A stretch of DNA of 64,000 nt, from NCBI GenBank assembly GCA_944389545.1, contig CALXMT010000001.1:138682-202681 (forward strand), written 5' to 3'. Below, piece by piece: positions 1,000 through 31,560 of the stretch. Under the pieces are notes generated by a model, which did no database searches, was not told the origin of the DNA, and saw only the letters and a program-made list of their open reading frames with translations. The position numbers and the translations under genes were made by a program. The number at the start of each line of letters is the position of its first letter. Positions within the stretch are counted from its first letter, which is position 1. This DNA is from an uncultured Kiritimatiellota bacterium (lineage in GTDB: Bacteria; Verrucomicrobiota; Kiritimatiellia; RFP12; DVOR01).

Positions 1000-1095
1000 T
1001 TTCCACGAAGACACGAAGCAACGCAAGAGCCTGGGCACTTCACCGTTCGGCCCTCCGGGCCTCACTACCGTGCCCATCCCTTGCGTTTCTAGTGT
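1000..1095. repeat. Dispersed repeat family B (~100 bp; '...gaagacacgaag.aacgcaag.gcctgggcacttcaccgttcggccct.cgggcct..ctaccgtgcccatcccttgcgtttct')
   Basis: Near-identical copies at 31355-31480(rc), 54495-54605(rc), 58215-58320 and 62995-63100(rc). Confidence 0.8.
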
Positions 1096-5884: not shown

Positions 5885-8614
5885 ATGGCCACGCGACACT
5901 TCATCGGATGGTCCGAGGCCGCACCCGCACGGGTGGTGCGATGGTGCCGTGGGCAATGGCCGGAGGCCTTGCCGCCGGGCCTCATCTTCTGCGTGCCCAC
6001 CTCGCTCGCCCTGCGCCGTTTGCGCGATGCGCTCATCGATGCTTACGGCTCCTTCCAGGGCGTCCGCTTCCTCACGCCCTCGGCGCTCCCCACCCTCTTT
6101 GCGCCGCCCGCCGAGACCCAGGCCGCCACCCCCTCCGAGATGTTCCGCGTCTGGGCGCGCGTCTTCGATTGGCTCCGCCAGGCGGACCCCTCCGACGCCG
6201 TGCTCGCCAGCCTCTTCCCCGGCCAACGCGCCTGGCTTGACCGCCCCGCCGCGCGCTACGCCCTCGCCCGCCGCCTCATGGCCCTGCGCGACACCCTTGC
6301 CGAGCAATGCCTCGACTTCGCCGCCGTCGCCGCCCACCCCCAGACGGCGCTCCTCGGCGACCGCGAGCGCAACCGTTGGGCCGCCCTGGACCTCCTAGAG
6401 ACCAAGTGCCGCGAGACCCTCGCCGCGCTCGGCCTGGAAGACCCCGCCGACCGCCAGCTCGCCATCCTGCGCAACCCCGTGCCGCAGCCCCAAGAGGCCG
6501 CCGCCGAATGGCGCCTGGTCGTGGCCTGCGTGCCCGACCTCATGCCCGCCCTCACGCGCCTCTTCGACGCCGCCCCCGCCTGCGACATCCTGGTCCTCGC
6601 CGAACCTGCCGATGCCGACCGCTTCTCCCCCCACGGCCTGCCGGCCCCGGCAGCCTGGGCCACCTGCGACATCCCGCTTCCGGAAGGCGCGTTCCGTCCC
6701 GCCGAGAACCCGCAGGGCGAGGCCGACGCCGTTGAGGCCTTCCTGGATGCCCACCGGCGCATCGACCCGGCTGACCTCTGCCTCTGCGCGCTCGACCGCG
6801 AGGCCCTGCCGCCCCTCACCGCGGCCTTTGCCGAACACGAGGTGACCGTCTTCGAGCCTGAGCCCATCGCCCTCGCCAAGCAGGCCCCCGCCCGCGCGTT
6901 GCTTGCCCTTGCCGGCCTCCTGCGCGACCCCACCCCTGCCGCGTTGCTCCCGCTCCTCGTCCTCCCCGAGACCGCCGCCACCGTGGGCGTCTCGGTCGCG
7001 CGCCTCCGCGCCGACTACGACTCGCTCATGGCCGAGCGCAACCCCTCCACCCGCCGCGATGCCCTCCGCTTCGCCCCGGAAGGCCCCCTCCGCGACTTCC
7101 TCTCGAAGTGCCAGGCTTGGGCCAACGCCTTCCGCGCCAATCCCGTTCCCGCCGCGCGCACCTTCTTGATTGACCTCTACGGCGCCGCCTCCATCGATCC
7201 CACCCGCGAACCCATCCGCTTCGCGACCTTCGATGCCCTCCGCGGCCTCCTCAACGAACTCGCCGGCCTCCGCACCGATGCGGACGTGCCCGATGCCGAC
7301 CTCCTCGCCGCGCGCCTCGCCGACGAAGCCATCCGCCCCGTCCGCAGGGACGCTGACTGCGCCTACGAGGGCCGTCTGGAGATTCTCTGGTCGCGTGCGC
7401 CCCTCCTCGCCCTCATCGGCTTGAATGAAGGCCTCTTCCCGGACACCACCTTCGAGGACGCCTTCCTCCCCAACGCCTTCCGCCGCGCCCTGGGCCTCCG
7501 CAACGACGCCACCCGCGCCGCCCGCGATGCCTACCTCCTCGTCGCGGCCACCGCCTGGCGCGACCCCGGCGACCTCCTCCTCACCTGCGCCCGCACCAAC
7601 CTCCGCGGCGACTGGCTCAAGCCCACGCGCCTCCTCTTCCGGTGCGACGCCGCCACCCGCGCCGCCCGCGCCCGTGCCCTCTTCCTCGACCCCGCGCCGC
7701 GTCCGCCGGCGCCGCCCCCGGGAACCGCGCTCGCCTTCACGCAAAACCCCGTCTGCTGGCGTGAGGTTCCCCCGCCCACCCGACTCTCCGCCTCGGCCAT
7801 CGCCCGCTTCCTCGCCTCGCCCCTCGTCTATTGGATCACCGACCGCCTCCGCCTCGCCGACGCCGAAGACCTCCCAGACGGCATGGACGCCGCCGCCTTC
7901 GGTGTCCTCATCCACACCGCGCTCGAAGCCCTCCGCACCACCGACGCCACCGACCCGGGCACCCTCTCGGACACCTTGACCACGGCCTACGACACGGCCT
8001 TCTACGAGCGTTACGGCAGCAATCCCGGCATCGAACTCCTTGCCGCCCAAGCCGCCGCCCACGGCCGGCTCCGTGCCGCCGCGCGCCTGGAATCGCAGTC
8101 CCGTCTGGAGGGTTGGGAGACCAAGTACACCGAACACGAGACGCGCGACCCCAAATGGGAACTGCCCTTCGACGTCGACGGCCACACGCTCACCCTCTAC
8201 GGACAAATTGACCGCATCGACCGCAACCGCCACACCGGCGCCTGGCGCATCGTCGATTACAAGACCGGCAAGAAGGGCGAACCGCCCAACAAGACCCACT
8301 ACACCAAACCCCGCGATGGCGACCTCCGGTGGATGAGCTTCCAGCTCCCCCTCTACCGTCTCCTCGCCCGCCACGCCCTCAATATCCCCGCCGACACCCC
8401 CATCGAGCTCGACTACTTCCTGCTCCCCGCCATGGGGCAGGCCGACTTCGCCCGCTACGACGACCCCGAAGACGAGGCCGCCACCCTCCGCGACTTCCAA
8501 GACACCCTCCGCGAACTCCTCGCCCTGGGCCAAGAGCCCCTCCCCGCGGATGTCGGCGACTACGGCGACCCGCTCCTCAAACTCCTCACGGAACCCACCG
8601 CCCCATGCGATTGA
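5885..8614 (+). CDS. PD-(D/E)XK nuclease family protein (RecB-like C-terminal nuclease domain, 909 aa)
   Basis: C-terminal 'GQIDRIDRNRHTGAWRIVDYKTGKKG' matches the RecB/AddB nuclease motif (D...D-Y-K). No Walker A helicase motif is visible in the N-terminal 600 aa. Confidence 0.6.
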   Translation: MATRHFIGWSEAAPARVVRWCRGQWPEALPPGLIFCVPTSLALRRLRDALIDAYGSFQGVRFLTPSALPTLFAPPAETQAATPSEMFRVWARVFDWLRQADPSDAVLASLFPGQRAWLDRPAARYALARRLMALRDTLAEQCLDFAAVAAHPQTALLGDRERNRWAALDLLETKCRETLAALGLEDPADRQLAILRNPVPQPQEAAAEWRLVVACVPDLMPALTRLFDAAPACDILVLAEPADADRFSPHGLPAPAAWATCDIPLPEGAFRPAENPQGEADAVEAFLDAHRRIDPADLCLCALDREALPPLTAAFAEHEVTVFEPEPIALAKQAPARALLALAGLLRDPTPAALLPLLVLPETAATVGVSVARLRADYDSLMAERNPSTRRDALRFAPEGPLRDFLSKCQAWANAFRANPVPAARTFLIDLYGAASIDPTREPIRFATFDALRGLLNELAGLRTDADVPDADLLAARLADEAIRPVRRDADCAYEGRLEILWSRAPLLALIGLNEGLFPDTTFEDAFLPNAFRRALGLRNDATRAARDAYLLVAATAWRDPGDLLLTCARTNLRGDWLKPTRLLFRCDAATRAARARALFLDPAPRPPAPPPGTALAFTQNPVCWREVPPPTRLSASAIARFLASPLVYWITDRLRLADAEDLPDGMDAAAFGVLIHTALEALRTTDATDPGTLSDTLTTAYDTAFYERYGSNPGIELLAAQAAAHGRLRAAARLESQSRLEGWETKYTEHETRDPKWELPFDVDGHTLTLYGQIDRIDRNRHTGAWRIVDYKTGKKGEPPNKTHYTKPRDGDLRWMSFQLPLYRLLARHALNIPADTPIELDYFLLPAMGQADFARYDDPEDEAATLRDFQDTLRELLALGQEPLPADVGDYGDPLLKLLTEPTAPCD

Positions 8615-9600
8615 CCCCCCAAGAAGCAGACTGGCTCTACGCCCTCCAGCGCCCCTGGCCCCTGGTCGAGCGCCCCCTCGTCGCTCTCGCCGAAACCCTC
8701 GGCGCCACCGAGGCCGACCTGCTCCGCTTCATCGCCGACCTCCGCGCCCAAGGCCTCGTCCGCCGCATCGGCGGTGTCTTCGACGCCCGCCGTCTGGGTT
8801 ACCGCAGTTGCCTCTTCGCCCTCCCGCCGCAGTCGCCCGACGAGGAGGAGGCCGCCGCCCGCCGTCTCGCCGCCCTGCCCGGCGTCACCCACGCCTATCT
8901 CCGCGGCTGGCCCGAGGATCTGACCCTCGATGGCGTCACCGCCGCCGACTACGCCGGCCTGCCCCGCCTCTGGTTCACCCTCTCCTCCCGCGGTGACCGC
9001 TTCGAGGCCGAGACCGCCCGCCTCGCCGACCTCCGCCCCATCCCCTTCCCCGCCCTCGTCCGCTACAAAATCGACGTCGTCTTCGACCCCCGCACCCAGA
9101 CCCGCGACGAGCGCACCGAATACGCCGCCCCCGCCGAGCCGCGCCCCGCCCCGATTCCGCCGGAGCCCCTCCGCGCCCTCGTCCGCCGCTACCAAGACGA
9201 CGTGCCCGACCCCGCCGCGCCCTTCCGCCCCGAGGATCTCCCCCAACTCCGCGCCTGGCAGGCCGATGGCACCCTCCGCCGCTTCGCCCTACTCCTCTTC
9301 CACCGCGCCAGCGGTTTCGCCGCCAACGGCATGTGCTGTTGGCGCGTCCCGGAGGCCGAGGCCGACACCTTCGGCCGCCGCCTCGCCGCCGACCCGGACG
9401 TGACCCACTGCTACGCCCGTCCCCTCTCCCCCATCTTCCCCTTCAACCTCTACGCCATGATCCACAAGACCTCCTGGCAAGAAGGGTTCGATGCCTTCCG
9501 GCGCCTCACCCGCGTCGCGGGCCTGCCCCCCGGCAAGGTCCTCTTCTCCACCCGCGAATACAAAAAGAGCTCCGTCCGCTTCTTCCTTGAGGAGGATTGA
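8605..9600 (+). CDS. ahbAB: Siroheme decarboxylase, fused AhbA/AhbB (NirD/L-like, two Lrp/AsnC-type repeats)
   Basis: Two tandem homologous halves ('...VTHAYLRGWPEDLT...WFTLSSRGDRFEAE...' and '...VTHCYARPLSPIFPFNLYAMIHKTSWQEG...') characteristic of NirDL/AhbAB. ATG at 8605 chosen; the longer track ORF from 8329 would overlap the upstream gene. Confidence 0.65.
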   Translation: MRLTPQEADWLYALQRPWPLVERPLVALAETLGATEADLLRFIADLRAQGLVRRIGGVFDARRLGYRSCLFALPPQSPDEEEAAARRLAALPGVTHAYLRGWPEDLTLDGVTAADYAGLPRLWFTLSSRGDRFEAETARLADLRPIPFPALVRYKIDVVFDPRTQTRDERTEYAAPAEPRPAPIPPEPLRALVRRYQDDVPDPAAPFRPEDLPQLRAWQADGTLRRFALLLFHRASGFAANGMCCWRVPEAEADTFGRRLAADPDVTHCYARPLSPIFPFNLYAMIHKTSWQEGFDAFRRLTRVAGLPPGKVLFSTREYKKSSVRFFLEED

Positions 9601-9602
9601 CC

Positions 9603-10592
9603 ATGCGCCTGCTTCCCTTCCTAGCCGCCCTCGTCGCCGCGCCCCTCTGCGCCCTCGACCTCTCCGGCCTCTCCGCCGACAACCACATCGCCGGCCCCGC
9701 AGTCTCCCCCGAGTCCCTCGACGGCAAGGTCGTCGCCATCTACGATTTCGGCCGCTTCTGCCCCCGTTGCAAGGCCGCCTTCCCCAAGGTCGCCAAGCTC
9801 GCCGACGACCTCGCCAAGGAAACCCGCGTCGTCTTCCTCGGCTCCCACCTCCAGGGTCGCGATGACGCCGCCGTCCGCGCCGTCCTCGAGTCCGCCGGGT
9901 GCCCCAATCTCCCCACCTACCAATTCCTCGGCGTCCCCGGCGCGCCCTCCGCCGGCAGCCTCCTCCCCACCGGCTACGTCGTCGGCCACGATGGCGAGGT
10001 CGTCTGGGCCGGCAACACCCTCGAGGACTTCGCCGCCTTCGAAAAGGCCGTCAAGGACGCCATCAAGGCCGCCCCCAAGCCCGTCCCCGGCTCCATCGCC
10101 GACGGCATGGCCCTCCGCTACAACCAGGACTTCGCCCGCCGCCTCATGATCGGCCAGAACATCGAGTCCGCCCTCCGCCAACTCCAATCCCACGCCCGCC
10201 GTTCCGGCCCCGCCGGCGAAGAGGCCCGCGCCCTCCTCACCCGCTGCCAAGACTGGGCGAAGGAGACCGAGGCCGCCATCCGTGCCAACATCGAGACCAA
10301 TCCCTCCCAAGCCCTCGCCGACGGCCAGACCCTCCTGCGCACCCTCCCCTCCAAGGCCGCCGACCTCAAACCGCTCCTCGACCCGCTGATCAAAGATCCC
10401 CGCATCAAGGCCCTCGCCACCTCTCGCCTGGCCCTCGCCAACCTCCGCAAGACCGCCGCGCAGAATCCCTCCCGCGTCAAGTCCTCCGCCACGCTCCAGC
10501 TCCGCCGCCTCTCCTCCATCGCCACGCCGGACGACCCCGACCTCCAGGCCCTCCGCGCCGAATGGCAAACCTTCATCGACTCCCTCCCCTAA
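9603..10592 (+). CDS. Secreted thioredoxin-fold protein (CxxC 'CPRC'), function unknown
   Basis: Signal-peptide-like N-terminus 'MRLLPFLAALVAAPLCA', 'FGRFCPRCKAAF' redox motif. RBS 'gaggagg' 8 nt upstream of ATG 9603 (the track start at 9597 is a TTG). Confidence 0.55.
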   Translation: MRLLPFLAALVAAPLCALDLSGLSADNHIAGPAVSPESLDGKVVAIYDFGRFCPRCKAAFPKVAKLADDLAKETRVVFLGSHLQGRDDAAVRAVLESAGCPNLPTYQFLGVPGAPSAGSLLPTGYVVGHDGEVVWAGNTLEDFAAFEKAVKDAIKAAPKPVPGSIADGMALRYNQDFARRLMIGQNIESALRQLQSHARRSGPAGEEARALLTRCQDWAKETEAAIRANIETNPSQALADGQTLLRTLPSKAADLKPLLDPLIKDPRIKALATSRLALANLRKTAAQNPSRVKSSATLQLRRLSSIATPDDPDLQALRAEWQTFIDSLP

Positions 10593-10594
10593 TT

Positions 10595-10860
10595 AGAAGC
10601 TTAGAAGTTTGGAGGCTTGGAAGCTTGGAGGAGCCCCAGAGGTGGGAGCCCGCCACCAAGTCTAGGACCGCAAAGACGCAAGGGGAGGCGCGAACCGCTT
10701 CGGGCTCCATCGGTCGCTCTGCGGCTTCGCCGCTGACCGCGACCGCCGCCCTCCGTTTCGCGCCTTGCCGCCTTTTATAAAGAGATAAATCGGGGCGTGG
10801 GGTAGAGCCCCACCAAGAAAGCCAAACTTCCAAGCCTCCAAGCTTCCAAACTTCTAATCA
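10595..10860. repeat. Repeat family A (reverse orientation) plus 'gaagcttggagg' units
   Basis: Reverse complement of the 1150-1320 element. Confidence 0.8.
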
Positions 10861-10903
10861 ATTTGCTATTCTATGGGCACGCCGCGGGAGAGCCGCGGCT
10901 TGA

Positions 10904-10918
10904 TTGCGCTTTGCGCAA
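10904..10918. promoter_or_regulatory. Perfect 15-bp palindrome 'ttgcgctttgcgcaa' in the lower-GC leader of the Type ISP RM gene (candidate operator)
   Basis: Read directly from sequence. Lies 185 bp upstream of ATG 11103, next to 'ccgcgggagagccgcgg'. Confidence 0.3.
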
Positions 10919-11102
10919 ACAGGTTGTCTTATCGGAAATTACGACCTTCTATGAGTTAGACAACGTGTTTGGCGAGGTGCGCCGGTATCGGCGCGCCTCC
11001 TTTTCACGTATTAACTCAGGGCCGTCGTAAGCCTCCGATAAATGCGTGAAAGGATGCGCGCCTTTTTTGTGGCCTCGGCCCTGGGCGCGAAGGAGACCGG
11101 CC

Positions 11103-14100
11103 ATGGGCATGACGTTGGATGAGGTATTGGCGCGCTTTCGCGAGGAGGCGCAGGGCAATCTTGCCGCCATGGGGTCGCGCTTCGAGGGGTTGATTCACAA
11201 TCTCCTGCTTTCCCATCCGCTTTATAAGGAAGAGGTGGCGCGCGTGTGGCGCTGGGCCGACTTCCCCGCACGCGGCCAGCTGACGCCGACCGGCACCGAC
11301 GCCGGCATCGACCTGGTGGCCCAAACCCACTTCGGCGACTACTGGGCCATCCAGTGCAAGTGCTACGACCCCGGCACCACCGTCTCCAAACCCGACGTCG
11401 ACTCCTTCCTCGCCCTCTCCTCCAAGACCTTCACGTGGGACACCCGCCCCGTCCGCTTCGCCCAGCGCCTCATCTTCGCCTCCACCGACCGTTGGAACGC
11501 CACGGCGGAAGAAACCCTGCGCAACCAGACCCCGCCCGTGACGAAGGTCGCCTACGCCCAGTTGGCCGCATTGGAGGTCGACTGGGAGGCACTGCTCAAG
11601 GGCCGCGAAGACTTCTGCGTCAAACACGACGCCCGTCCCCACCAACTCAAGGCGATGGCCGCCGCACATACCCACTTCGCCGCACACGACCGTGGCCTCT
11701 TGGTGATGGCGTGCGGTACGGGCAAGACGTTGACGGCCCTGCGTCTGATGGAACAAGAGTTGCCCCAGGGCGGCCTCGTCCTCTTCCTCGTCCCCTCCAT
11801 CGCCCTGCTCAATCAAACCCTCGTCTCGTGGAGCGAGGAGGCGCGTCTGCCGCTCACGCCCGTCTGCGTCTGTTCCGACGCCACGGCCTCCAAGAAGAAG
11901 GGCCGCGACGCCGACACCGCGCCGGAGAGCCTCGTTGACCTCGCCGCGCCGGCCTGCACCGACCCCCGCGTCGTGGCCGTCCATGTCCAGACCGCCCGCC
12001 GCAACAAACCAAACGCCCTCACCGTCGTCTTCTCCACCTATCAATCCATCGGCGTCGTTGAGCAGGTTCAGCGCGAACTGGGCCGCGACACCTTCCCCTT
12101 CGACTTCATCGTCTGCGACGAGGCCCACCGCACCACCGGCATCACCGGCCTGACCAATCCCGATGGGACCCCGGCCAAGGACTCCGCCTTCACCCTCGTC
12201 CACGACAACGCCCACGTCCTCGCCCACAAACGCCTCTACATGACCGCCACCCCGCGTCTCTACGGCGAGGGCGCCAAGAAGAAGGCCCAAGAGAACTCCA
12301 TCGAACTCTGCTCTATGGACGACGAGGCCCTCTACGGCGCGGAGTTTCATCGTCTCGGGTTCGGCGAGGCCGTGGACGAGGGCCTTCTCACCGACTATAA
12401 GGTCCTGGTGCTGACCATCCCCGAGGCCTCCTTCGACCCCGCGATGGTGCAGGAAATCCTCGGCGAGGGCACCGCCCTGGAACCGCAGGACGCCATCAAG
12501 ATGATCGGCTGCGTCAACGCCCTCTCCAAGCAACTCACCAACCCCGACCTCATCCCCCCGAACGACCGCGCCCCCGCCAAACGCGCCGTCGCCTTCTGCC
12601 AAAGAATCTCCTCTTCTCAAGAAACCGCCGAGACCTTCACCAAGACAGGCGAGGTGCTCCAGCGCGTCCTCCCCGAAGACCGCCGCGCCGGCCTGATTGT
12701 CCCCAAGGTCCAGCACGTAGACGGCACGATGGGCGCCTCCCTGCGCAATGAACGCCTGGCCTGGCTCAAGGCGCCGACGGAGGGCACGGAGTGCCGCATT
12801 CTCTCCAACGTCCGCTGTCTCTCCGAAGGCGTGGACGTGCCTTCCCTCGACGCCGTCCTCTTCCTCTCCGACCGCAACTCCGAGATTGACGTGGTGCAGA
12901 GCGTGGGGCGTGTGATGCGCCGCGCACCCGGCAAACTCTTCGGCTACATCATCGTGCCCGTGGTCATTCCCGAAGGCATCAAACCCGAGGAGGCCATGCG
13001 CGACAACAAGCGCTACGCCGTCGTCTGGTCCGTCCTCAACGCCCTCCGCGCCCATGACGACCGCTTCCAAGCGCGCATCGAGCGATTGCGTTTCACCAAG
13101 GCCCAACCCAAGACCCCTCCCGGCACAGACACCGCCGCAATCTCCGGCACCGAAACGATGGGCGGCGACGACGCCGGAATACTCATCGACACTGGTCTGG
13201 GCCAGATGGTGACGGAGAACGGGCAGGACATGATCCCCGGCCTCTTCCCCCTGCCCCCGAACTGGGACGTCGAGTCCCTCCAGCAGGTCGTCTACGCCCA
13301 AATCGTCAAGAAGGTCGGTGAGCGCGACTACTTCGACCAGCTTGCCGCGCAGGTCGCCCAAATCGTCCGCCGCCACGTGGAAGTCATGCGCGAACGTGTC
13401 GCCTCGGATCCCACCGCCGAGACCCACTTCAAGTGGTATTACGAGTTTCTCACACAGGCCATCTACGCCACCGTCTCCTCCGACGACGCCCTCATCATGC
13501 TGGCCCAGCACGGCGTCTCCACGCAGCTCTTCGACATCCTTTTTGGCTCCGACGACTTCTCCCGCCACAACCCCATCTCCAAGGCGATGGACTCCGCCCT
13601 AGGCCTGTTGCAGGACTTGACGACGAAGGAAGAACAAGAGACCCTCGACAAGCTCTACGACAACATCTCCCGCAAGGTCAAGGCCATTTCCGGCGAGCGT
13701 GATGGTGGCCGCTGCCGTCAGGCTCTCATCAAGTCGCTCTACGACACCTTCTTCGCCGCCGCCTTCCCAGACACCGCCGCCAAGCTCGGCATCGTCTTCA
13801 CCCCGCTCGAGGTGGTCGACTTTATCCTTCGTTCCGCAGACGATGCCCTGCGCAAGCACTTCGGCCAAAAGCTCACCGATGAAGGCGTCAACATCCTCGA
13901 CCCCTTCACCGGCACGGGCACCTTCATCACGCGCCTCCTCCAGTCCGGCCTTATCGCTCCCAAGGACCTTCGCCGCAAGTATCGCGAGGAACTCTTCGCC
14001 AACGAGATTGTCCTCCTCTCCTACTATATCGCCGCCCTCAATATTGAGACGGTCTACCACGCACTCGTCGGGCGGTCCACCTATCAGGAATTTCCCGGCA

Positions 14101-15941
14101 TCGTCTTGGGCGACACCTTCCGGATGCGCCAAGTCACCGAGCAGGACACGCTTGATGATGATGCCTTCTCCGCGAACTCCCAGCGCCTCCTGCGCGAAAA
14201 CCGAACCCCTATCTCCGTCATTGTCGGCAACCCGCCCTACTCCGTCGCCAAGGGCGAGGATTATCCGGAGCTGGACGCGGACATCAAGGCCACCTACGTT
14301 CTCGGCTCCTCCGCCATCAACAAGAACTCTCTCTACGATTCCTACATCAAGGCCTTCCGCTGGGCCTCCAACGTCATCGAGAACCCACGCGGCGGCGTCC
14401 TCGGCTTCGTCTCCAATGGCGGGTGGCTCGACTCCAACGCCTGCGATGCCTTCCGCAAGGCCCTTGTCCGTGAGTTCGACGAAATCTACTGCTACAACCT
14501 CCGCGGGAACTGCAACACCTCCGGCGAAGTCCGAAAGCGCGAGTGCGAAGGGATTTTCGGCGAAGGGTGCCGTACACCCATCACCATTCTCCTCCTGGTC
14601 CGCCTTCCCGCCGGCAAACACACCGGCAACGCCACCATCCGCTACCGCGACATCGGCGACTACAAGAACCGCAAGACGAAGCTCGCCGACCTTGCCGCCC
14701 AGCAATCCTTCTTCTCTGCCGCCTGGCTCGATGGCGCCACCATCCTCAAACCCAACGAACACGGCGACTGGATCAACCAGCGTAACGATGCCTTCGGAGC
14801 CTATATCCCAATTGAGCCCGAAAAGAAATTTGACACCAAGAGTCCGTCCTTCTTCGTAACCTTCAGCCGTGGTCTTGCCACCGCCCGCGACCCCTGGTGT
14901 TACGCCTTCTCCGCCAAAGAGGTCCAAGCCAAAATGCAGGCTTCCATCGACCTTTATAATCGTTCCCTAGACGAAGGAACGCCTATCGAAGACCCACACG
15001 TCATCAGCTGGAACCGCTCCTTACTTGGGCATTTTCAGCGTGGCAGGAGGGAGCCGCTCCTACTCCCACGCGTCAGTGTCTATCGCCCCTTCTGCAAGAT
15101 GTTCCAATACTTTTCAGCCTTCTGGAACGACATGATTTACCAAATCCCCAAGCTCTTTCCGACGGGGAAACGCGGAGAGAATCTGGTGATTTGCGTAAAC
15201 GGGATTGGCATGAACAAGCCGTTCGCTTGCCTCATTACGGACATCACCCCAGACATTCAGCTTATGCCCAATGGCCAGTGTTTCCCGCTCTATTGGTATA
15301 CGGAGGGGGAAAGCGACTTCTTCAATAAGAACATGGTGCGACATGATGGGGTGAGCGACTGGGTGTTAGGCCAGGCGCGGAGCCGCTATGGGACGGACGT
15401 GACGAAGGAAGAGATTTTCTACTACGTCTACGGTTTCCTCCATCAGCCGGCCTATCGGGAAACCTTCGCGGCCGACTTGAAGAAGTCCTTGCCGCGTCTC
15501 CCGCTGGTGGAGCGCTACGAGGATTTCAAGAAAACCTCCGACATCGGGCGGCAGTTGGCCACGCTCCACCTCAACTACGAGACGTTGGAGCCCTATCCGT
15601 TGGAAGAGAGGGGCGACTTCTCCGACACACGGGTGATCAAGATGAAGTTCGGCGGGAAGGGCGGAAAAGACCGTTCCATCCTTATCGTGAACAACACGCT
15701 GACCCTGCGCGGCATCCCCGAAGAGGCCTATCGCTACCAGGTGAATGGCCGCAGCCCCATCGAGTGGGCGGTGGACCGCTACCAAGTGCGCCAAGACACC
15801 AAAAGCGGCATCATCAACGACCCCAACCTCTGGGCCCCGGACAACCCGCGCTACATCCCCGACCTCATCAAGCGCCTCGTCACCCTCTCCATCGACTCCC
15901 TCAACCTCATCAACGCCCTCCCACCCTTCACCGCCGAGTGA
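11103..15941 (+). CDS. Type ISP restriction-modification enzyme (single polypeptide: Mrr-like nuclease - SF2 helicase - N6-adenine MTase - TRD; LlaGI/LlaBIII class)
   Basis: N-terminal 'GIDLVAQTHFGDYWAIQCKCY' (Mrr-type D...QxK). Helicase Walker A 'MACGTGKTLTAL' and DEAH box 'FIVCDEAHRTTG'. MTase motif I 'ILDPFTGTGTFI' and motif IV 'VIVGNPPYSVAKGED'. About 450-aa C-terminal TRD-like region. Confidence 0.85.
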   Translation: MGMTLDEVLARFREEAQGNLAAMGSRFEGLIHNLLLSHPLYKEEVARVWRWADFPARGQLTPTGTDAGIDLVAQTHFGDYWAIQCKCYDPGTTVSKPDVDSFLALSSKTFTWDTRPVRFAQRLIFASTDRWNATAEETLRNQTPPVTKVAYAQLAALEVDWEALLKGREDFCVKHDARPHQLKAMAAAHTHFAAHDRGLLVMACGTGKTLTALRLMEQELPQGGLVLFLVPSIALLNQTLVSWSEEARLPLTPVCVCSDATASKKKGRDADTAPESLVDLAAPACTDPRVVAVHVQTARRNKPNALTVVFSTYQSIGVVEQVQRELGRDTFPFDFIVCDEAHRTTGITGLTNPDGTPAKDSAFTLVHDNAHVLAHKRLYMTATPRLYGEGAKKKAQENSIELCSMDDEALYGAEFHRLGFGEAVDEGLLTDYKVLVLTIPEASFDPAMVQEILGEGTALEPQDAIKMIGCVNALSKQLTNPDLIPPNDRAPAKRAVAFCQRISSSQETAETFTKTGEVLQRVLPEDRRAGLIVPKVQHVDGTMGASLRNERLAWLKAPTEGTECRILSNVRCLSEGVDVPSLDAVLFLSDRNSEIDVVQSVGRVMRRAPGKLFGYIIVPVVIPEGIKPEEAMRDNKRYAVVWSVLNALRAHDDRFQARIERLRFTKAQPKTPPGTDTAAISGTETMGGDDAGILIDTGLGQMVTENGQDMIPGLFPLPPNWDVESLQQVVYAQIVKKVGERDYFDQLAAQVAQIVRRHVEVMRERVASDPTAETHFKWYYEFLTQAIYATVSSDDALIMLAQHGVSTQLFDILFGSDDFSRHNPISKAMDSALGLLQDLTTKEEQETLDKLYDNISRKVKAISGERDGGRCRQALIKSLYDTFFAAAFPDTAAKLGIVFTPLEVVDFILRSADDALRKHFGQKLTDEGVNILDPFTGTGTFITRLLQSGLIAPKDLRRKYREELFANEIVLLSYYIAALNIETVYHALVGRSTYQEFPGIVLGDTFRMRQVTEQDTLDDDAFSANSQRLLRENRTPISVIVGNPPYSVAKGEDYPELDADIKATYVLGSSAINKNSLYDSYIKAFRWASNVIENPRGGVLGFVSNGGWLDSNACDAFRKALVREFDEIYCYNLRGNCNTSGEVRKRECEGIFGEGCRTPITILLLVRLPAGKHTGNATIRYRDIGDYKNRKTKLADLAAQQSFFSAAWLDGATILKPNEHGDWINQRNDAFGAYIPIEPEKKFDTKSPSFFVTFSRGLATARDPWCYAFSAKEVQAKMQASIDLYNRSLDEGTPIEDPHVISWNRSLLGHFQRGRREPLLLPRVSVYRPFCKMFQYFSAFWNDMIYQIPKLFPTGKRGENLVICVNGIGMNKPFACLITDITPDIQLMPNGQCFPLYWYTEGESDFFNKNMVRHDGVSDWVLGQARSRYGTDVTKEEIFYYVYGFLHQPAYRETFAADLKKSLPRLPLVERYEDFKKTSDIGRQLATLHLNYETLEPYPLEERGDFSDTRVIKMKFGGKGGKDRSILIVNNTLTLRGIPEEAYRYQVNGRSPIEWAVDRYQVRQDTKSGIINDPNLWAPDNPRYIPDLIKRLVTLSIDSLNLINALPPFTAE

Positions 15942-15962
15942 ACCTCAAAGTGCCTCCGCCGG

Positions 15963-16140
15963 GTCCCGTAAAGGGCCCTTTTCGGACCCCTATAAGGGTC
16001 GGCCTTGGACCACTATAAGGGTTGTCCCTCGACCCTTATAGGGTCTCACCACCGACCCCTATAGTGGTCGACCTCGGACCCTTATAGGGTCTCAGAAAGG
16101 CCCCTTAAGCGTGTCTCCAAAGACCCTTTTTGGGCCTCCA
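15963..16140. repeat. Periodic array of imperfect 15-16-bp palindromes ('gaccc(c)ttata/tataa gggtc') at ~23-bp spacing between convergent gene ends
   Basis: Units at 15985-16000, 16008-16023 (degenerate), 16031-16045, 16055-16070 and 16077-16091 (identical to 16031-16045). Degenerate relatives at 15963-15978 and 16099-16136. AT-rich 'tactatataataagg' at 16147-16161. Confidence 0.75.
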
Positions 16141-16208
16141 GAAGGTACTATATAATAAGGTAAGGGGAAAGGGTCGGTGAGTTTTCCACGAAAACACGAA
16201 GGAGCGCA

Positions 16209-17783
16209 TTAGGCAAGCGGTTCAGCGGCGGTGCCGGTGAGGCGGCGGGTGGCGCCATCGAAGGAGAGGCCGATGAGGTGGACTTCCTTGCCGCTGTGGC
16301 GATAGGGCTCGGCGTAGCCCTTCTCTTTGATTTGGGCGAGAGCCTCTTGGGGCGTGCCATCAACCTTGAGTTCGAAGACGAAGACGCGTTCGGGCGTCTC
16401 GGCGACCAAGTCGGCGCGGCCATGGGACTGCCGATCCTCGGCGGTGACACGGAAGAAGCCGCTGGCGGTCAGCAGAACGTAGAGGATGCGCTGGAAGGAG
16501 AACTCCTGCACGCGCTCCTCTTTGGAGCCGTAGATGAGATGGGCGTAGAGGTCGGAGAGATTGCCGAAGAAGATGTCGAAGTCGGCCTGCTTCAAGGCCC
16601 GGCTGACCATGCTGAGATAGTGGTTGTCTTCCTTCTGTGCAAATTTTTTGACGAGCTGGGCGTTGAAGGCACGGCGGACCTCTTCGTCCGGGATGCCAAG
16701 CGTGAAGACTCCGTCTTGGAAATCTTTGATGGTGAGGTAGCCGCCTTGGTAGAGCATGGCGATGGGGCGGATGTTTTCCAAACCGCAGACGTCCAGGTCT
16801 TCCTCAAAGACATCCTCGACGTTCTCGTAGTCCTTCTCGACGAGTTGGTTGTTTGTGAAGTAGTTGATGACGGTGGAAGTCTGGCCGGTGGAAATCCAGG
16901 TGCCGATGAAGCGACGCTTCAATGCGCCGAGGGTTTGCCCAATGGCAAAGGGATTGTAGACTTTCTCCTCGCAATCCGGAGAGAAACGGTAACCGTTGTA
17001 CCACCAGCGAAGCTTTTCGCGGTAATCCTCGTAGGAAAGGCCCATAACTTCGGCATGGCGGTGCAACGTCTTGCTGAAGTTGGCGCCCAGCTCCTCATCG
17101 GTGTAACCAAGGAGCGTGGCGTAGCGCTCATCCATCGTCAGGTCGGTGAGGTTGTTGAGCGCCGAGAAGACAGAAAGCTGCGTGAACCGCGTCACGCCGG
17201 TCATCATCATGAAGCGGATGTTGCCAACGTTGTTCTTGATTTCGCCATAGAAGGCGGAGAGCTCGGCGCGGATGGCTTTGGCCTTGGCAATGTCGTTCAG
17301 CGCGTGGCCCACGGGCGCGTCGTACTCATCAATGAGGATAACCACGGGTTTGCCACGGTCTTTGGCGAGAAAACGGATTGCGTTGGCGAAGTTGTCATTC
17401 GGAGCCAATGCAGGGTCATAGACGACCCCGGCCTCCTCGAAGGCCTGTTTCACACGTACCACCAACCCTGCGCAGAAACCCTCAAGGGTCTCCACTTTCA
17501 TCGTGCCAAAGTTGAAGTGGAGGACGGGATACTCAGTCCAGTCGTAGTCCATCTGGTCGATGGCAAGGCCTTTGAAGAGCTCGCGTTGGCCGCGGAAAAG
17601 GCACTCCAACGTGGAGAGCATCAGCGACTTGCCGAAGCGCCGCGGACGCGAGATGAAGAAGAAGGAGTCCATCCCACGCGTGACGAGCGGATAGAGCAAT
17701 GCGGTTTTGTCCACATAACGATAGCCATCCTTCCGCATATTGCGGAAGTCATAGGTCCCTTGCGCAATCTTCTCTTCTTCCAT
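16209..17783 (-). CDS. AAA-ATPase-like / PD-(D/E)XK nuclease fusion protein (DUF1703-type), paralog 1
   Basis: P-loop 'ISRPRRFGKSLMLSTLE'. C-terminal 'GRADLVAETPERVFVFELKVDG' (D...ExK nuclease motif). RBS 'aaggag' 6 nt before ATG. Confidence 0.75.
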   Translation of the reverse strand: MEEEKIAQGTYDFRNMRKDGYRYVDKTALLYPLVTRGMDSFFFISRPRRFGKSLMLSTLECLFRGQRELFKGLAIDQMDYDWTEYPVLHFNFGTMKVETLEGFCAGLVVRVKQAFEEAGVVYDPALAPNDNFANAIRFLAKDRGKPVVILIDEYDAPVGHALNDIAKAKAIRAELSAFYGEIKNNVGNIRFMMMTGVTRFTQLSVFSALNNLTDLTMDERYATLLGYTDEELGANFSKTLHRHAEVMGLSYEDYREKLRWWYNGYRFSPDCEEKVYNPFAIGQTLGALKRRFIGTWISTGQTSTVINYFTNNQLVEKDYENVEDVFEEDLDVCGLENIRPIAMLYQGGYLTIKDFQDGVFTLGIPDEEVRRAFNAQLVKKFAQKEDNHYLSMVSRALKQADFDIFFGNLSDLYAHLIYGSKEERVQEFSFQRILYVLLTASGFFRVTAEDRQSHGRADLVAETPERVFVFELKVDGTPQEALAQIKEKGYAEPYRHSGKEVHLIGLSFDGATRRLTGTAAEPLA

Positions 17784-17802
17784 GACCGAACTCCTTGCCT
17801 AT

Positions 17803-17811
17803 AGTATAGCA
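17803..17811 (-). promoter_or_regulatory. Extended -10 element 'TGcTATAcT' upstream of paralog 1
   Basis: Minus-strand sequence '...cgctccttatgctatactataggcaaggagttcggtcATG' read directly. The same element precedes paralog 2. Confidence 0.4.
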
Positions 17812-17819
17812 TAAGGAGC

Positions 17820-17990
17820 GACATCGCCGCCTCGGCACTACCAGCACCAATACTGTCCGTGGAAGTTTACCGCGAAGACGGTCTTGCGTGGAAACCCTAC
17901 GGGCTCCATCGTTCCCGTTGGTGCGCCGCCCTTGGGATTTCCACGCTATCGCACTTTTAATGGAAGTTTGGAAGCTTGGAGGCGCATTTC
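17820..17990. repeat. Dispersed repeat family I ('caatactgtc.gg.gaagtttt.ccgcgaagacgg.cttgcgtggaaaccc..cgggctccatcg.tccc...cgccgcccttgggatttccacgctatcgc') plus 'gaagcttggagg' unit
   Basis: Copies at 19650-19800, 30990-31110, 45785-45930, 48380-48490, 53790-53900 and 55660-55800. Confidence 0.8.
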
Positions 17991-18012
17991 CACGAAAACA
18001 CGAAGGAGCGCA

Positions 18013-19593
18013 TTAGGCAAGCGGCTCAGCGGCGGTGCCGGTGAGGCGGCGGGTTTGGCCGTCGAAGGAGAGGCCGATGAGGTGCACCTCTTTGCCGGAG
18101 TGGCGGTAAGGCTCGGCGTAACCCTTTTCCTTGATTTGGGCAAGGGCCTCTTGGGGCGTGCCGTCGACCTTGAGTTCGAAGACGAAGACGCGTTCGGGGG
18201 TCTCGGCAACGAGGTCTGCACGCCCCTGAGATTGGCGATCCTCGGCGGTGACGCGGAAGGAACCGTCGGAGGTCAGCAGGACGTAGAGGATGCGCTGGAA
18301 GGAGAACTCCTGCACGCGCGCTTCTTTGGAGCCGTAGGTGAGATGGGCGTAGAGATCGGAGAGGTTGCCGAAGAAGGTGGCGAAGTCGGCCTCTTCCAAC
18401 GCTTGGCAGGTAAGATTGCGGTAACGATCACTTGGAGTCTCGGCGAACTTTTGGACGAGCAGGGAGTTGAGCGCGCGGCGGACCTCCTCGTCCGGGATGC
18501 CGAGGGTGAAGCGTGACCGGCGGTATTTCTTAATGGTCAGATAGCCGCCTTGGTAAAGCATGGAGATGGGCTGAATGTTCTCCAGACCACAAACGTCCAA
18601 ATCTTCCTCTGAAACCCCCTCAATGTGCTCATAGTCCAGCTCGACGAGTTGGTTTTTCGTGAAGTAGTTGATGACAGCGGAGGTCTGGCCGGTGGAAATC
18701 CATGTGCCGGTGAAGCGACGCTTCAATGCGCCGAGGGTTTGCCCAATGGCAAAGGGATTGTAGACTTTCTCCTCGCAATCCGGAGAGAAACGGTAACCGT
18801 TGTACCACCAGCGAAGCTTTTCGCGGTAATCCTCGTAGGAAAGGCCCATAACTTCGGCATGGCGGTGCAACGTCTTGCTGAAGTTGGCGCCCAGCTCCTC
18901 ATCGGTGTAACCAAGGAGCGTGGCGTAGCGCTCATCCATCGTCAGGTCGGTGAGGTTGTTGAGCGCCGAGAAGACGGAGAGTTGCGTGAAGCGCGTCACA
19001 CCGGTCATCATCATGAAGCGGATGTTGCCGACGTTGTTTTTAATCTCGCCGTAAAAGGCGGAGAGTTTGGCGCGGATAGCCTTGGCCTTGGCGATGTCGT
19101 TCAGCGCATGGCCCACGGGTGCGTCATACTCGTCGATGAGAATGACCACGGGTTTGCCACGGTCTTTGGCGAGGGCCTTGATTGCACGTGAGAAGTTGTC
19201 GTTCGGGGCAAGGGTCGGATTATAAGTGGCCTTGGCATCCTCAATCACTTCTTGCACACGCGCCACAAAACCGGCCTGAAAGGTCTCAAGGGTCGTCACA
19301 TCCATCGTGCCGAAGTTGAAGTGGAGGATGGGGTAAGATTCCCAATCGTAGTCCATCTTGTCGATGGCCAGGCCCTTGAAGAGTTCGCGCTCACCGCGGA
19401 AGAGACACTCCAGTGTTGAGATCATCAGCGACTTGCCGAAGCGCCGTGGCCGGGAGATGAAGAAGAAGGAGTCCCTTCCGCGCGTGACGAGCGGATAGAG
19501 CAATGCCGTCTTGTCCACATAACGGAATCCATCCTCCCGCATAACGCGGAAGTCATAGGTCCCTTGCGCAATCTTCTCTTCGTCTTCTACCAT
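18013..19593 (-). CDS. AAA-ATPase-like / PD-(D/E)XK nuclease fusion protein (DUF1703-type), paralog 2
   Basis: Same architecture as paralog 1. Contains a stretch identical to paralog 1 (the alt-frame ORFs 16919-17131 and 18723-18935 encode identical 70-aa peptides, so at least 213 bp is identical). Start set at the ATG with 'aaggag' RBS (MVEDEEK). An upstream in-frame ATG (MSKEF) is overlapped by the -10 box. Confidence 0.75.
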   Translation of the reverse strand: MVEDEEKIAQGTYDFRVMREDGFRYVDKTALLYPLVTRGRDSFFFISRPRRFGKSLMISTLECLFRGERELFKGLAIDKMDYDWESYPILHFNFGTMDVTTLETFQAGFVARVQEVIEDAKATYNPTLAPNDNFSRAIKALAKDRGKPVVILIDEYDAPVGHALNDIAKAKAIRAKLSAFYGEIKNNVGNIRFMMMTGVTRFTQLSVFSALNNLTDLTMDERYATLLGYTDEELGANFSKTLHRHAEVMGLSYEDYREKLRWWYNGYRFSPDCEEKVYNPFAIGQTLGALKRRFTGTWISTGQTSAVINYFTKNQLVELDYEHIEGVSEEDLDVCGLENIQPISMLYQGGYLTIKKYRRSRFTLGIPDEEVRRALNSLLVQKFAETPSDRYRNLTCQALEEADFATFFGNLSDLYAHLTYGSKEARVQEFSFQRILYVLLTSDGSFRVTAEDRQSQGRADLVAETPERVFVFELKVDGTPQEALAQIKEKGYAEPYRHSGKEVHLIGLSFDGQTRRLTGTAAEPLA

Positions 19594-19612
19594 GCCGAAC
19601 TCCTTGCTCATA

Positions 19613-19621
19613 GTATAGCAT
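19613..19621 (-). promoter_or_regulatory. Extended -10 element 'TGcTATAcT' upstream of paralog 2
   Basis: '...cgccccttatgctatactATGAGCAAGGAGTTCGGCATGG'. Confidence 0.4.
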
Positions 19622-19807
19622 AAGGGGCGACATCGCCGCCTCGGCACTACCAGTACCAATACTGTCCGTGGAAGTTTACCGCGAAGACGGTCTTGCGTGG
19701 AAACCCTACGGGCTCCATCGTTCCCGTTGGTGCGCCGCCCTTGGGATTTCCACGCTATCGCACTTTTAATGGAAGTTTGGAAGCTTGGAGGCGCATTTCC
19801 ACGAAAA

Positions 19808-19850
19808 CACGAAGGAGCGCATTAGGCAAGCGGCTCACCGGCACCGTTGC
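19808..19850 (-). pseudogene. 3'-terminal remnant of a third DUF1703-type paralog (last ~12 codons '...GNGAGEPLA*' after an in-frame stop) with conserved 3' flank
   Basis: 19770-19826 matches the 3' UTR and last codons of paralogs 1 and 2 ('ttccacgaaaacacgaaggagcgcattaggcaagcgg'), then diverges. Confidence 0.45.
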
Positions 19851-20313
19851 CGAGCCACTTGCCTAAGGTTGCACGACTTTACAAAGACATGAAGGGAGCT
19901 CCATTCTCCGGGGCGCCCCTTGTCTTGCGTGCGCTAGCACGCCTTTAATCTGCTCCAAATCTGTGCAATCTGCGGTTCTCCATCCCACGTCGCTCTTCAG
20001 GAGATGTAGGAGAAGCCGGAGCGCCCTTGCGGGGCGACGGAGGAAGTGCTGTGCAAAAGCGGCGTAAGCCGCGAAAAGCCAAGCCTCCAAGCTCTCAAAC
20101 TTCCTCATCCCCTTTTGACGCAGGAAAGTGGGGCGCGGGAGGGCGCACGACCGTGCGTCCGGCGTTAGCGCCCCACCTTTCCTGTAAGCGTTGCGTCTTT
20201 GCGGTTTCCTTTTTCCCGGGACTCCTACAGTGGCGAAGCAATAAAAAAGCCCCGAGACCGGTGGGTCTCGGGGCGTGGTTTGAGGTGGATTGAGAGAAGG
20301 GGGTGGAAGTGCC

Positions 20314-22065
20314 TCAGAGGGGGAGGCGGAGGGTGAAGACAGTGCCTTCGCCCAGGGTGGAGTGGACCTCGACGGAGCCGTGGTGGAGGAGGGCGATGTG
20401 CTTGACGATGGCGAGGCCGAGGCCGGTGCCGCCTTTCTCGCGGGAGCGATCCTGGTGGACGCGGTAGAAGCGCTCAAAGAGGCGGGAGAGGTGCTCGGTG
20501 GCGATGCCGCAGCCCTGGTCGGCGACGGTGATGACGGCGTGGCCGTCCTCAACCTGGAGGCCGAGGGTGACGGTGGGGGAACCGGAGTGGCGCAGGGCGT
20601 TGGAGAGGAGGTTGACGAGGGACTGCTCGAGGAGGTGGGCGTCACCGCGGACGGTCACGGCCGGGAGGGCGGCGGGCTCGGTGAGGAGCTTGACGCCGGC
20701 GCGGTCGGCATCGTCCTGAACGAGGGCGATGGCATCGGTGGCGAGGGAGTCGAGGCGGATCTCGGTGAAGTCCTTGGTGCCGGAGGTCTGGCGGCGCTCG
20801 ATGGCGGCTAGGGAGAGGATGTCCTGGACGAGGTCGTTCAAACGGCGGGCCTGACGGGAGAGGATGTCGAGGCAGTGCTTGCGGCCATTGTCATCGAGGG
20901 GAATCTCGGAGAGGGTCTCGACGGTGGAGAGGATGGCGGCGAGAGGGGTCTTGATCTCGTGGGAGACGTTGGCGACGAAGTCGGAACGGAAGGACTCGAG
21001 GCGGCGGAGGTCGGTGAGATCGGTGAGGAGGACGAGGATGCAGAGGGTGCCTTCGCGCTCCATGCGGACGGCGTGGGCGAGGAGGGCGCGGGGGGTGCCG
21101 CCGTCATCGAAGGGAATCTCGCGGCCATGGAGGGTGGGCTCGGTGAAGGCGCCGCGGACGTAGGCGATGAGCTCGGGGCAGGCGGTGCGCTCGATGCGGA
21201 AGCCGGGGGTGGCGACGGCCTCGCCGAAGAGGTCGGCGGCGGCGCGGTTGGAGCGGAGGATGTTACCGTTGGGGGCGACGAGGAGGAGGGGCTCGCGGAG
21301 GGTGTTGAAGAGGGTGTCGAAGTCGTCGCGCTCACGGCGGAGCTCGTCAATGCGGTTGCGGAGCTGGCGGCCCATGACGGCGATGGCCTTGGCGAGCTCG
21401 CGGAGGGGCCCGTTGCGGGGGACGTCGATGGGGGTGTCGAGGTGGCCGCGGGCGATGGCGACGGCGGAGGACTGGAGGGCGTTGAAGTGCGGGCGGACGC
21501 GGAAGAAGAGGTAGAGGAAGAGGGCGACGGCGACGATGAGGCCGGCGCAGAGGGCGAGGATGACGGTCATGCGGACCTGGTCGATGGCGGCATCAACGGC
21601 GGCGGTGGGGAGGGAGGCGCGCAGAATCCAGCCATCATGATCCTCAAGAGGCATGGCGTAGTAAAGAAACCACGCGTTCATGGTGGTGGAGTAGCGAGTC
21701 TCGAAGTCGCCATCGGCATCGATGGCCTGAACCTCGGGGCGGTCGCCGTGGTTGGCGAGGTTGGCGAGGGGCACATCGGATTCGGCCACGACCTTGCCAT
21801 CAGGAGCGATGAGGGTGAAACGGAGGGGCTTGCCGGTGAAGAAAGAGAAGTGTTCCTGGATGGCCTTTTGGTCGCCGGAGCGGAGGTCATCGTCGATGAC
21901 GCGGGCAACGAAGTGGGCGTCCTGGCGGAGGGTCTCCTGGGCGTCCTGGATATAGGCGTTCTCGAAGGCGCGGAACTGGTGGAAGAGGAGGCCGACGGCG
22001 ACAATGACAAGAACCAACACGCTAAGCGGGAAGGCAAGGAAGATTAAGTCGCGATGCTTCATCAT
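20314..22065 (-). CDS. Sensor histidine kinase (PhoR-like, two TM segments, HAMP, HisKA, HATPase)
   Basis: 'FVANVSHEIKTPLAAI' H-box and 'GGTGLGLAIVK' G2 box. Last gene of the pst-phoU-RR-HK string. Confidence 0.8.
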   Translation of the reverse strand: MMKHRDLIFLAFPLSVLVLVIVAVGLLFHQFRAFENAYIQDAQETLRQDAHFVARVIDDDLRSGDQKAIQEHFSFFTGKPLRFTLIAPDGKVVAESDVPLANLANHGDRPEVQAIDADGDFETRYSTTMNAWFLYYAMPLEDHDGWILRASLPTAAVDAAIDQVRMTVILALCAGLIVAVALFLYLFFRVRPHFNALQSSAVAIARGHLDTPIDVPRNGPLRELAKAIAVMGRQLRNRIDELRRERDDFDTLFNTLREPLLLVAPNGNILRSNRAAADLFGEAVATPGFRIERTACPELIAYVRGAFTEPTLHGREIPFDDGGTPRALLAHAVRMEREGTLCILVLLTDLTDLRRLESFRSDFVANVSHEIKTPLAAILSTVETLSEIPLDDNGRKHCLDILSRQARRLNDLVQDILSLAAIERRQTSGTKDFTEIRLDSLATDAIALVQDDADRAGVKLLTEPAALPAVTVRGDAHLLEQSLVNLLSNALRHSGSPTVTLGLQVEDGHAVITVADQGCGIATEHLSRLFERFYRVHQDRSREKGGTGLGLAIVKHIALLHHGSVEVHSTLGEGTVFTLRLPL

Positions 22066-31500: not shown

Positions 31501-31560
31501 GCAAAGCGGGGCGGGCGCTTTTGGTATACTATGGGGTGAATTCTTTTTGAGGAGACCTCC

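Follow-up and report, generated by a model that had tools for sequence, protein, structure and literature searches.

A tandem pair of DUF1703 genes in an uncultured gut Kiritimatiellota bacterium, with an identity patchwork that points to segmental gene conversion between old paralogues

We describe a tandem pair of DUF1703 genes in a 64,000-nucleotide (nt) stretch of DNA from an uncultured Kiritimatiellota bacterium (contig CALXMT010000001.1); this whole stretch is referred to below as the window. The two genes, g1 and g2, are arranged head-to-tail on the minus strand, and their products share 85% amino-acid identity. Comparison of the window with itself yields one direct repeat, in which 16183-18033 aligns with 17987-19842 at 86.99% identity over 1868 columns, bearing out a first-pass annotation that had proposed a unit of about 1.8 kb present twice in tandem. 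The copies are offset by 1804 nt within the genes and by 1809 nt within the spacer.

Identity along this repeat is very uneven, ranging from 56% to 100% when scored over 50 nt at a time. One perfect run, of 265 nt, lies inside the genes, and a second, of 183 nt, lies in the spacer (Table 1). The first-pass annotation had noticed a 213-bp identical stretch through a pair of alternative-frame open reading frames (16919-17131 and 18723-18935); these are indeed identical, at 70 amino acids each, and are shadows of the longer 265-nt run within which they lie. The pairwise alignment that it had suggested as a check thus finds discrete identity blocks, of 265 and 183 nt, and not uniform divergence. 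A further 47-nt piece, made up of the final 21 nt of the gene and the 26 nt past its stop, is present in triplicate (16183-16229, 17987-18033 and 19796-19842).

Gene conversion had also been proposed for this pair, and both a permutation test and a comparison of strains support it. In a Sawyer-type test using sites variable in the family and 100,000 permutations, the longest run of concordant polymorphic sites is 100 (17166-16907), while the permutation maximum is 44 (P<1e-5); with third-codon sites alone the run is 68, against a permutation maximum of 37. One could suppose instead that strong purifying selection, acting on a conserved core, keeps the blocks identical, with no recombination involved, and an entropy profile does show the central region to be the most conserved part of the family. 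We find this scarcely credible, given that synonymous divergence is 0 in the block and 0.4-0.7 elsewhere, that other paralogues are just 83-96% identical to the window copies over the same block, that the g1 centre of sister strains differs at ~45 sites, and that the non-coding spacer is identical as well.

Positions 15900-20300 of the window are 100% identical to L002, a gut-metagenome contig from ENA, and the nearest genome is a metagenome-assembled genome (MAG) labelled uncultured Kiritimatiellaeota, BRZ_KQ__bin80 (hereafter the related MAG), where at least 14 paralogues are found, with amino-acid identities of 74-89%. Across the locus, three sequences from sister strains (L086, L087 and L084) hardly differ from the window, the exception being ~60 differences clustered at 16560-17130 of g1. 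The g1 centre reads ARWNTT...ACEPAFFG in strains of the L086/L084 type and in L015, the positional orthologue of g1 next to the Type ISP gene of the related MAG, while the g1 centre of the window is the g2 version, SPDCEE...ALKRRF. The g2 centre is alike in the window, L085 and L086, and differs in L084. Because the sister strains and L015 retain the alternative g1 centre while g1 of the window matches g2, the transfer ran from g2 to g1, the window lineage having copied 224-265 nt in this direction.

Adjoining the converted tract, g1 16695-16860 is unlike g2 and 96-100% like the paralogue of L008; therefore a second, L008-like donor, or else a hybrid donor, would be needed. Replaced tracts are found in other strains at g2 18982-19450 (L085), at g2 18279-18540 (L086) and, in L084 (ENA ERZ16268055 scaffold_13186), at both g2 18715-18872 and spacer positions 17917-17963. 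The g2 centre of L084 also has a ~40-nt deletion, equivalent to 18885-18926, and its product is called at 291 amino acids only, suggesting that pseudogene formation can remove one member of the array. A paralogue at a dispersed locus, L089, has identical runs of 113 and 83 nt with g1 and of 92 nt with g2.

Could the identical blocks be an artefact of metagenome assembly, in which reads of the two copies, or of co-existing strains, were threaded together at shared k-mers? Contigs L003 and L005 stop exactly 77 nt inside identical blocks, and L004 (ENA ERZ28613587 scaffold_50256, 3673 nt) is perfectly periodic, holding 2.03 g2 units (55 nt beyond two complete units) with an exact period of 1809 nt and 100% self-identity. 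For the window, nevertheless, we think an artefact very improbable. The same g1 protein with its g2-type centre is present on nine contigs, and the long contigs L001 and L002, from different samples, align with 4 and 0 differences, respectively, over 6 kb. Other samples yield clean assemblies of the strain type whose centre is unconverted, the flank common to both centre types is 41 nt on one side, which is less than the implied k-mer sizes, and g1 of the window differs from the other strain type at 16560-16906 too, where it is not g2-like. As for L004, an assembly loop via the 183-nt repeat and a real g2-g2 amplification explain it equally well; because the patterns of L003, L005 and L004 typify assembly graphs that meet repeats longer than the k-mer, we take it as a weak hint at best. 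Metagenome contigs give no clear evidence of copy-number change at the locus, ~20 of them carrying two genes. Two candidate products of unequal crossover in this array, P0017 and P0002, were rejected, both being at unrelated loci.

The age of the pair is a separate question from the age of the blocks. Between g1 and g2, synonymous divergence (dS) is 0.51 and non-synonymous divergence (dN) 0.094. The proportion of synonymous differences (pS) is 0.4-0.7 over most of the gene (outside codons 201-320), falls to 0 in codons 241-280, and is 0.14 to each side of these. The two open reading frames are 84.3% identical to each other, while g1 is 85.0% and g2 85.1% identical to a paralogue from the related MAG (L007), so the copies are not each other's closest relatives. 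The nearest relative shifts from segment to segment, g1 16642-16892 being 94-98% identical to the L008 gene. L015 is a single family gene with no g2 beside it, and the ~20 contigs, from different samples, share the order kinase, g2, g1, Type ISP. Our conclusion from the synonymous divergence, from identities to other paralogues that are as high as the mutual identity, and from the two-gene layout on ~20 contigs is that the genes are not recent duplicates. The very recent duplication put forward in the first-pass annotation is thus not upheld for the genes which, judging by their sequences, are long-diverged paralogues. Identical blocks are a poor guide for dating duplications, and caution is warranted: here the blocks are young and the genes old.

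A more serious competitor is a recent tandem duplication of gene plus spacer, after which ectopic conversion from dispersed paralogues rapidly replaced most coding sequence in one copy or in both, while the spacer, having no donors elsewhere, stayed unchanged. Such a history would account for an array-unique spacer that is 100% identical over 183 nt beside genes that are 84% identical, and the same contrast between spacer and gene is seen in L006, a four-gene array of the related MAG. Ectopic tracts do appear between strains that are barely different elsewhere, and a neighbouring pair in L006 is 97.8% identical, so recent duplication does occur in the family. We nonetheless consider this history unlikely. 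Around three-quarters of the gene has a pS of at least 0.4, and many overwrites would be needed while the 183-nt spacer took no substitution; over its 3' half, g1 matches the single-copy orthologue L015, which is from another species, at 91-100% identity; and the two-gene layout is present in all strains sampled. The spacer identity, being limited to the array-unique part, is as expected from homogenisation still under way or from a unit that was duplicated more recently.

Table 1. Features of the locus (positions in the window)
Feature	Position	Strand	Description
g1	16209-17783	minus	524 amino acids; DUF1703: AAA-ATPase_like + PDDEXK_9
g2	18013-19593	minus	526 amino acids counted from the ATG associated with the Shine-Dalgarno sequence; architecture as g1
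Recipient tract in g1	16907-17171	minus	265 nt identical to g2 18711-18975; minimum 16907-17130 by strain differences
Donor tract in g2	18711-18975	minus	265 nt; unaltered in strains with unconverted g1
Spacer S1, between g2 and g1	17784-18012	minus	Composite of dispersed repeat modules
Spacer S2, upstream of g2	19594-19821	minus	Composite structure as in S1; 19655-19837 is 100% identical to 17846-18028
Post-stop motif TGCGCTCCTTCGTGTTTTCGTGGAAA	16183-16208	minus	26 nt, immediately 3' of the g1 stop; part of the 47-nt piece
Palindromic scar	19822-19866	both	Gene 3' end: 21 nt direct + 36 nt inverted
Palindrome array GACCnnTATAnnGGTC	15962-16106	unstranded	16-nt palindromes with a 23-nt period, in the gap that separates g1 from the convergent Type ISP gene
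Type ISP restriction-modification enzyme	11046-15941	plus	Mrr_cat_2, helicase, coupler, N6 methylase and Type_ISP_C domains

The modules of S1 are the 26-nt post-stop motif (18012-17987), a 22-nt GGAAG-type motif (17983-17962) and the family-I repeat (17952-17841), all of which recur elsewhere in the window; they are followed by TGcTATACT (17811-17803) and the Shine-Dalgarno (SD) sequence AAGGAG (17796-17791). The signals of S2 are TGcTATACT (19620-19612), an upstream ATG that is not conserved (19611-19609) and an SD sequence (19605-19600). The leaders had been called near-identical, and they differ by five substitutions and one indel in ~249 nt. Four of the five substitutions and the indel fall within the 62 nt adjoining the start codon, where all paralogues share homology. 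The remaining substitution (18029/19838) is in the gene 3' end, at the far limit of the perfect run. The array-unique part of the spacer has no differences between copies.

A start-codon difference had been reported from the same region, with 'ataggc' in copy 1 (17802-17797), 'atgagc' in copy 2 (19611-19606) and an extended -10 in both that abuts this upstream codon. The sequences read as stated, and the proposal that the SD-associated ATG is the functional start gains support: ccTTATGCTATACT, 6 nt, AAGGAG, 6-7 nt and ATG follow one another in 14 of 14 paralogues, while the upstream ATG of copy 2 is missing in half of them and abuts the -10. Homology upstream of the paralogues stops ~37 nt 5' of the start codon. 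TGnTATACT also stands 5' of two further genes of the window, at 31519 and 46174, and is therefore probably the organism's ordinary -10. A sigma-70 scan returned no two-hexamer promoter, and it is instead by its conservation that the extended -10 is supported; a terminator scan returned none between g1 and g2. An Rfam search of the entire window at gathering threshold found only tRNA-Pro, and a permissive search of 15900-20320 found nothing; the spacer therefore corresponds to no described RNA family.

Several of the repeats in and around the spacers are dispersed more widely. The family-I repeat, 110-165 nt long, is intergenic, and its 3' end, TCTTCGCGGnAAAnCTTCCnnGGACAGTATTG, is conserved; its copies lie at 17841-17983, 19650-19792, 45788-45952, 55666-55810, 48403-48484 and 1286-1353. 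Five of these six precede a same-strand gene start or tRNA-Pro by no more than ~60 nt, which suggests a promoter-bearing or 5'-leader element. As a candidate structured RNA it is not supported: there is a consensus hairpin, but only 2 of 25 pairs are compensatory, and several copies break the stem. The motif GGAAGTTTGGAAGCTTGGAGGC, whose 8-nt units are GGAAGyTT, is found at dispersed intergenic sites in either orientation, and at some of these its registers overlap in tandem (10596-10631, 10829-10854, 48705-48739, 36152-36184, 56098-56140, 1164-1182, 20083-20104, 45931-45952 and 55790-55810). A dispersed element of ~86 nt, consisting of CGCAAGGGATGGGCACGGTAGTGAGGCCCGAAGGGCCGAACGGTGAAGTGCCCAGGCCCT and then TGCGCTCCTTCGTGTyTTCGTGGAAA, has nested hairpin potential and no Rfam match; copies are found in the window at 1000-1085 (minus), in L006 (680-765), L009 (three), L010 (1273-1358) and L011 (two), and only its last 26 nt follow the stops of g1, g2 and the remnant upstream of g2. 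Upstream of the array are two short dispersed repeats (19922-19986 and 20019-20104), which also occur in L009, L012, L014, L015, L089 and L090. At other loci they recur 100-450 nt upstream, and sometimes downstream, of DUF1703 paralogues, and the L089 gene has them on both of its flanks.

The remnant itself had been described as a truncated third copy at 19770-19850. A gene 3' remnant does lie upstream of g2, but it is smaller than was thought, at 47 nt (19796-19842), and is made up of the final 21 nt of a family gene (19842-19822, minus) and the 26-nt post-stop motif. The earlier description did not include a 36-nt inverted copy of the gene 3' end at 19831-19866 (plus), which is 86% identical over its length and reads RLTGTVAEPLA before a stop. 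The direct and inverted pieces overlap in a small inverted repeat that is native to the gene 3' end. Together they form a scar with a predicted hairpin of -34.5 kcal/mol (z = -4.95), a fold that intact gene ends do not have. The scar may record the loss of an upstream gene through a fold-back event at the gene's own inverted repeat.

On one side of the pair, g1 is convergent with the gene for the Type ISP enzyme; the opposite flank has a PhoR-like kinase and the pst/phoU operon. A paralogue adjacent to PhoR, as a possible ancestral home of g2, was sought in the related MAG and none was found. Array size varies across the family, with two genes here and, in the related MAG, one at the orthologous site and four in L006. 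The L006 array repeats every ~1836 nt and contains four complete genes, a partial gene lying ~3.5 kb upstream; its spacers are near-identical and its genes 85-98% identical. At the orthologous site, the Type ISP enzyme shares only 59% protein identity with its L015 counterpart (7849-12663), while the adjacent 3' half of g1 and the DNA downstream of it are 91-100% nucleotide-identical to the L015 locus. Either the restriction-modification allele has been replaced, or there has been recent exchange at its border. G+C content is 0.56-0.59 across 14-20 kb and 0.64-0.70 in the flanks, and G+C at third codon positions is 0.75-0.78 in the two genes, compared with 0.84-0.95 in housekeeping genes on the flanks; in composition, both the restriction-modification gene and the DUF1703 pair have a foreign look.

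The palindrome array next to g1 has a core of ~95 nt that is almost invariant in nine copies, and occurs only once in the window. Of 10 related-MAG loci that have a DUF1703 gene at their centre, 8 carry such arrays, and in four or five cases the distance to a gene end is 200 nt or less (L006 11402-11494, L008 1653-1773, L010 4782-4878, L011 12170-12293, L012 7592-7697, L013 3330-3386 and 10829-10913, L014 9051-9161, L015 7719-7801). An association of the array with DUF1703 genes is no more than a possibility. Two pattern scans of metagenomes for the array returned nothing from this lineage, and three unrelated low-GC contigs only. These contigs, L091, L092 and L093 (1430-1468; JGI contig Ga0209755_10236026), are 43-45% G+C, short and without a DUF1703 gene, and carry the same palindrome in perfect form, GACCACTATAGTGGTC, paired at the same 23-nt spacing, which hints that palindrome and spacing are recognised by something widespread.

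Both genes are intact, and each is predicted to encode an AAA+-like ATPase fused to a PD-(D/E)XK nuclease. The AAA-ATPase_like domain at the N terminus (PF09820) scores 180.9 and 183.8 bits in the two copies, with the full-length profile covered, and the C-terminal PDDEXK_9 domain (PF08011) scores 61.4 and 60.1 bits, the Pfam gathering cut-offs being 26.1 and 25.5 bits respectively. An atypical Walker A motif (SRPRRFGKS), a Walker B motif (LIDEYD) and the nuclease motif GRADL...FELK (D...E-x-K) are intact in g1 and g2, and among 49 close homologues the Walker residues and D458, E471 and K473 are invariant. This DUF1703 architecture, with the atypical Walker A (RPRRFGKS) and Walker B (DEYD), was predicted by Knizewski et al. 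2007 (PMC1913061). The products are putative ATP-dependent nucleases. An AlphaFold2 model is poor, with a mean confidence (pLDDT) of 62 and a disordered middle, from a shallow alignment; its weak Foldseek matches to AAA+ proteins (Vps4, ORC/Cdc6) and PD-(D/E)XK nucleases (Hjc, HincII, CinB) simply re-confirm the two predicted domains. PADLOC, with its curated models of defence proteins, gave no match for either protein at E<0.01, matching only the neighbouring Type ISP/IIG enzyme at this locus; NCBIfam, PHROGs and PDB sequences gave no match for either, and the literature searched held no characterised DUF1703 member. Relatives are nonetheless abundant in the protein database, with more than 7000 at E<1e-50 and more than 100 clusters at least 73% identical to g1.

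Across the family, mosaicism is pervasive. When 49 homologues are divided into eight segments, with 6-26 types per segment, all 49 proteins are distinct combinations, and four-gamete violations occur in 27 of 28 segment pairs. Variability is highest at residues 83-146 and 375-408, and mixing of these two segments may diversify recognition specificity, possibly in genome conflict. A bolder proposal is that the DUF1703 paralogues form a self-diversifying repertoire of ATP-dependent nucleases, whose recognition modules, at residues 83-146 and 375-408, are shuffled by frequent segmental conversion into strain-specific specificities. We regard this as a long shot; if true, bacteria would have in it a counterpart to combinatorial families of innate-immune receptors. 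Within such a repertoire, the nucleases might even stimulate conversion by cutting the nearby palindrome arrays, which lie less than 200 nt from several family genes.

The explanation we favour, with a probability of roughly 0.75, is that the locus is a fixed two-gene tandem array within a large, recombining DUF1703 family, in which old paralogues have acquired their patchwork of identity by segmental gene conversion. The 224-265-nt tract would have passed recently from g2 to g1 by non-reciprocal homologous recombination, the two copies of the array-unique spacer would be held identical by conversion, and other gene tracts would be traded with dispersed paralogues elsewhere in the genome. In such a steady state, spacers could recombine only with each other and so become uniform, while genes would receive tracts from many dispersed donors and become mosaics. 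The triplicate 47-nt piece and the palindromic scar upstream of g2 would mark a former array boundary or a lost third gene, the scar having arisen by fold-back at the small inverted repeat in the gene's own 3' end.

Four points weigh against this explanation. The array-unique 183-nt spacer shows no difference whatever, which fits a much younger duplication whose coding parts were overwritten later. The segment 16560-16906 of g1 belongs to the window-specific tract and is not g2-like. All of the data are metagenome assemblies, whose contigs break at repeats, as L003 and L005 do 77 nt into the identical block. Finally, the proteins have no PADLOC, NCBIfam, PHROGs or PDB-sequence match and a poor structure model (pLDDT 62), their function being a predicted one. 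What the locus offers is a tract-level, polarised view of rapid ectopic and intra-array conversion reshaping an expanded nuclease family in an uncultured gut bacterium, in which near-identical strains differ by entire replaced segments. DUF1703 proteins are widespread, often multi-copy and uncharacterised, and experiments could set out from the variable segments mapped here and from the conserved stand-alone promoter.

An expanded, recombining DUF1703 family is known already; what is added here is unusually clear evidence at the level of single tracts. In Cardinium hertigii cCpun, DUF1703 is expanded to 25 paralogues, among which intragenic recombination was detected (Siozios et al. 2019, PMC6387759). 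Both families combine PF09820 with PF08011, and in both there are many paralogues per genome that recombine with one another. The Cardinium paralogues, however, have a mean amino-acid identity of 39% and are dispersed (PMC6387759), whereas those described here are 74-96% identical and partly in tandem arrays. In the present family, moreover, near-identical strains allow single conversion tracts to be resolved and their donor and recipient to be named, and the host is a free-living gut Kiritimatiellota bacterium rather than an insect endosymbiont.

The duplicated tufA and tufB genes of Salmonella evolve in concert by RecA-dependent gene conversion. As there, non-reciprocal transfer of a few hundred nucleotides appears to leave perfect blocks in otherwise diverged paralogues, but in the present family partial homogenisation would compete with imports from more than 12 other paralogues, giving mosaics rather than identity. 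The opa and pil genes of Neisseria and the vls locus of Borrelia are repertoires generated by segmental gene conversion, and they resemble the DUF1703 family in having discrete variable segments in many combinations among members. Unlike those systems, the family has no single expression site with silent cassettes, each copy having its own conserved promoter and an intact open reading frame; its products are predicted cytoplasmic ATPase-nucleases and not surface antigens, and no programmed mechanism is evident. The Rpn/YhgA-like proteins form PD-(D/E)XK paralogue families that are multi-copy within a genome and whose role is unclear. The likeness to g1 and g2, multi-copy PD-(D/E)XK nucleases in one genome, is one of description, with no homology claimed; the Rpn/YhgA-like family, which is named in PMC1913061, is a different Pfam family (PDDEXK_2) and is without the AAA+ domain.

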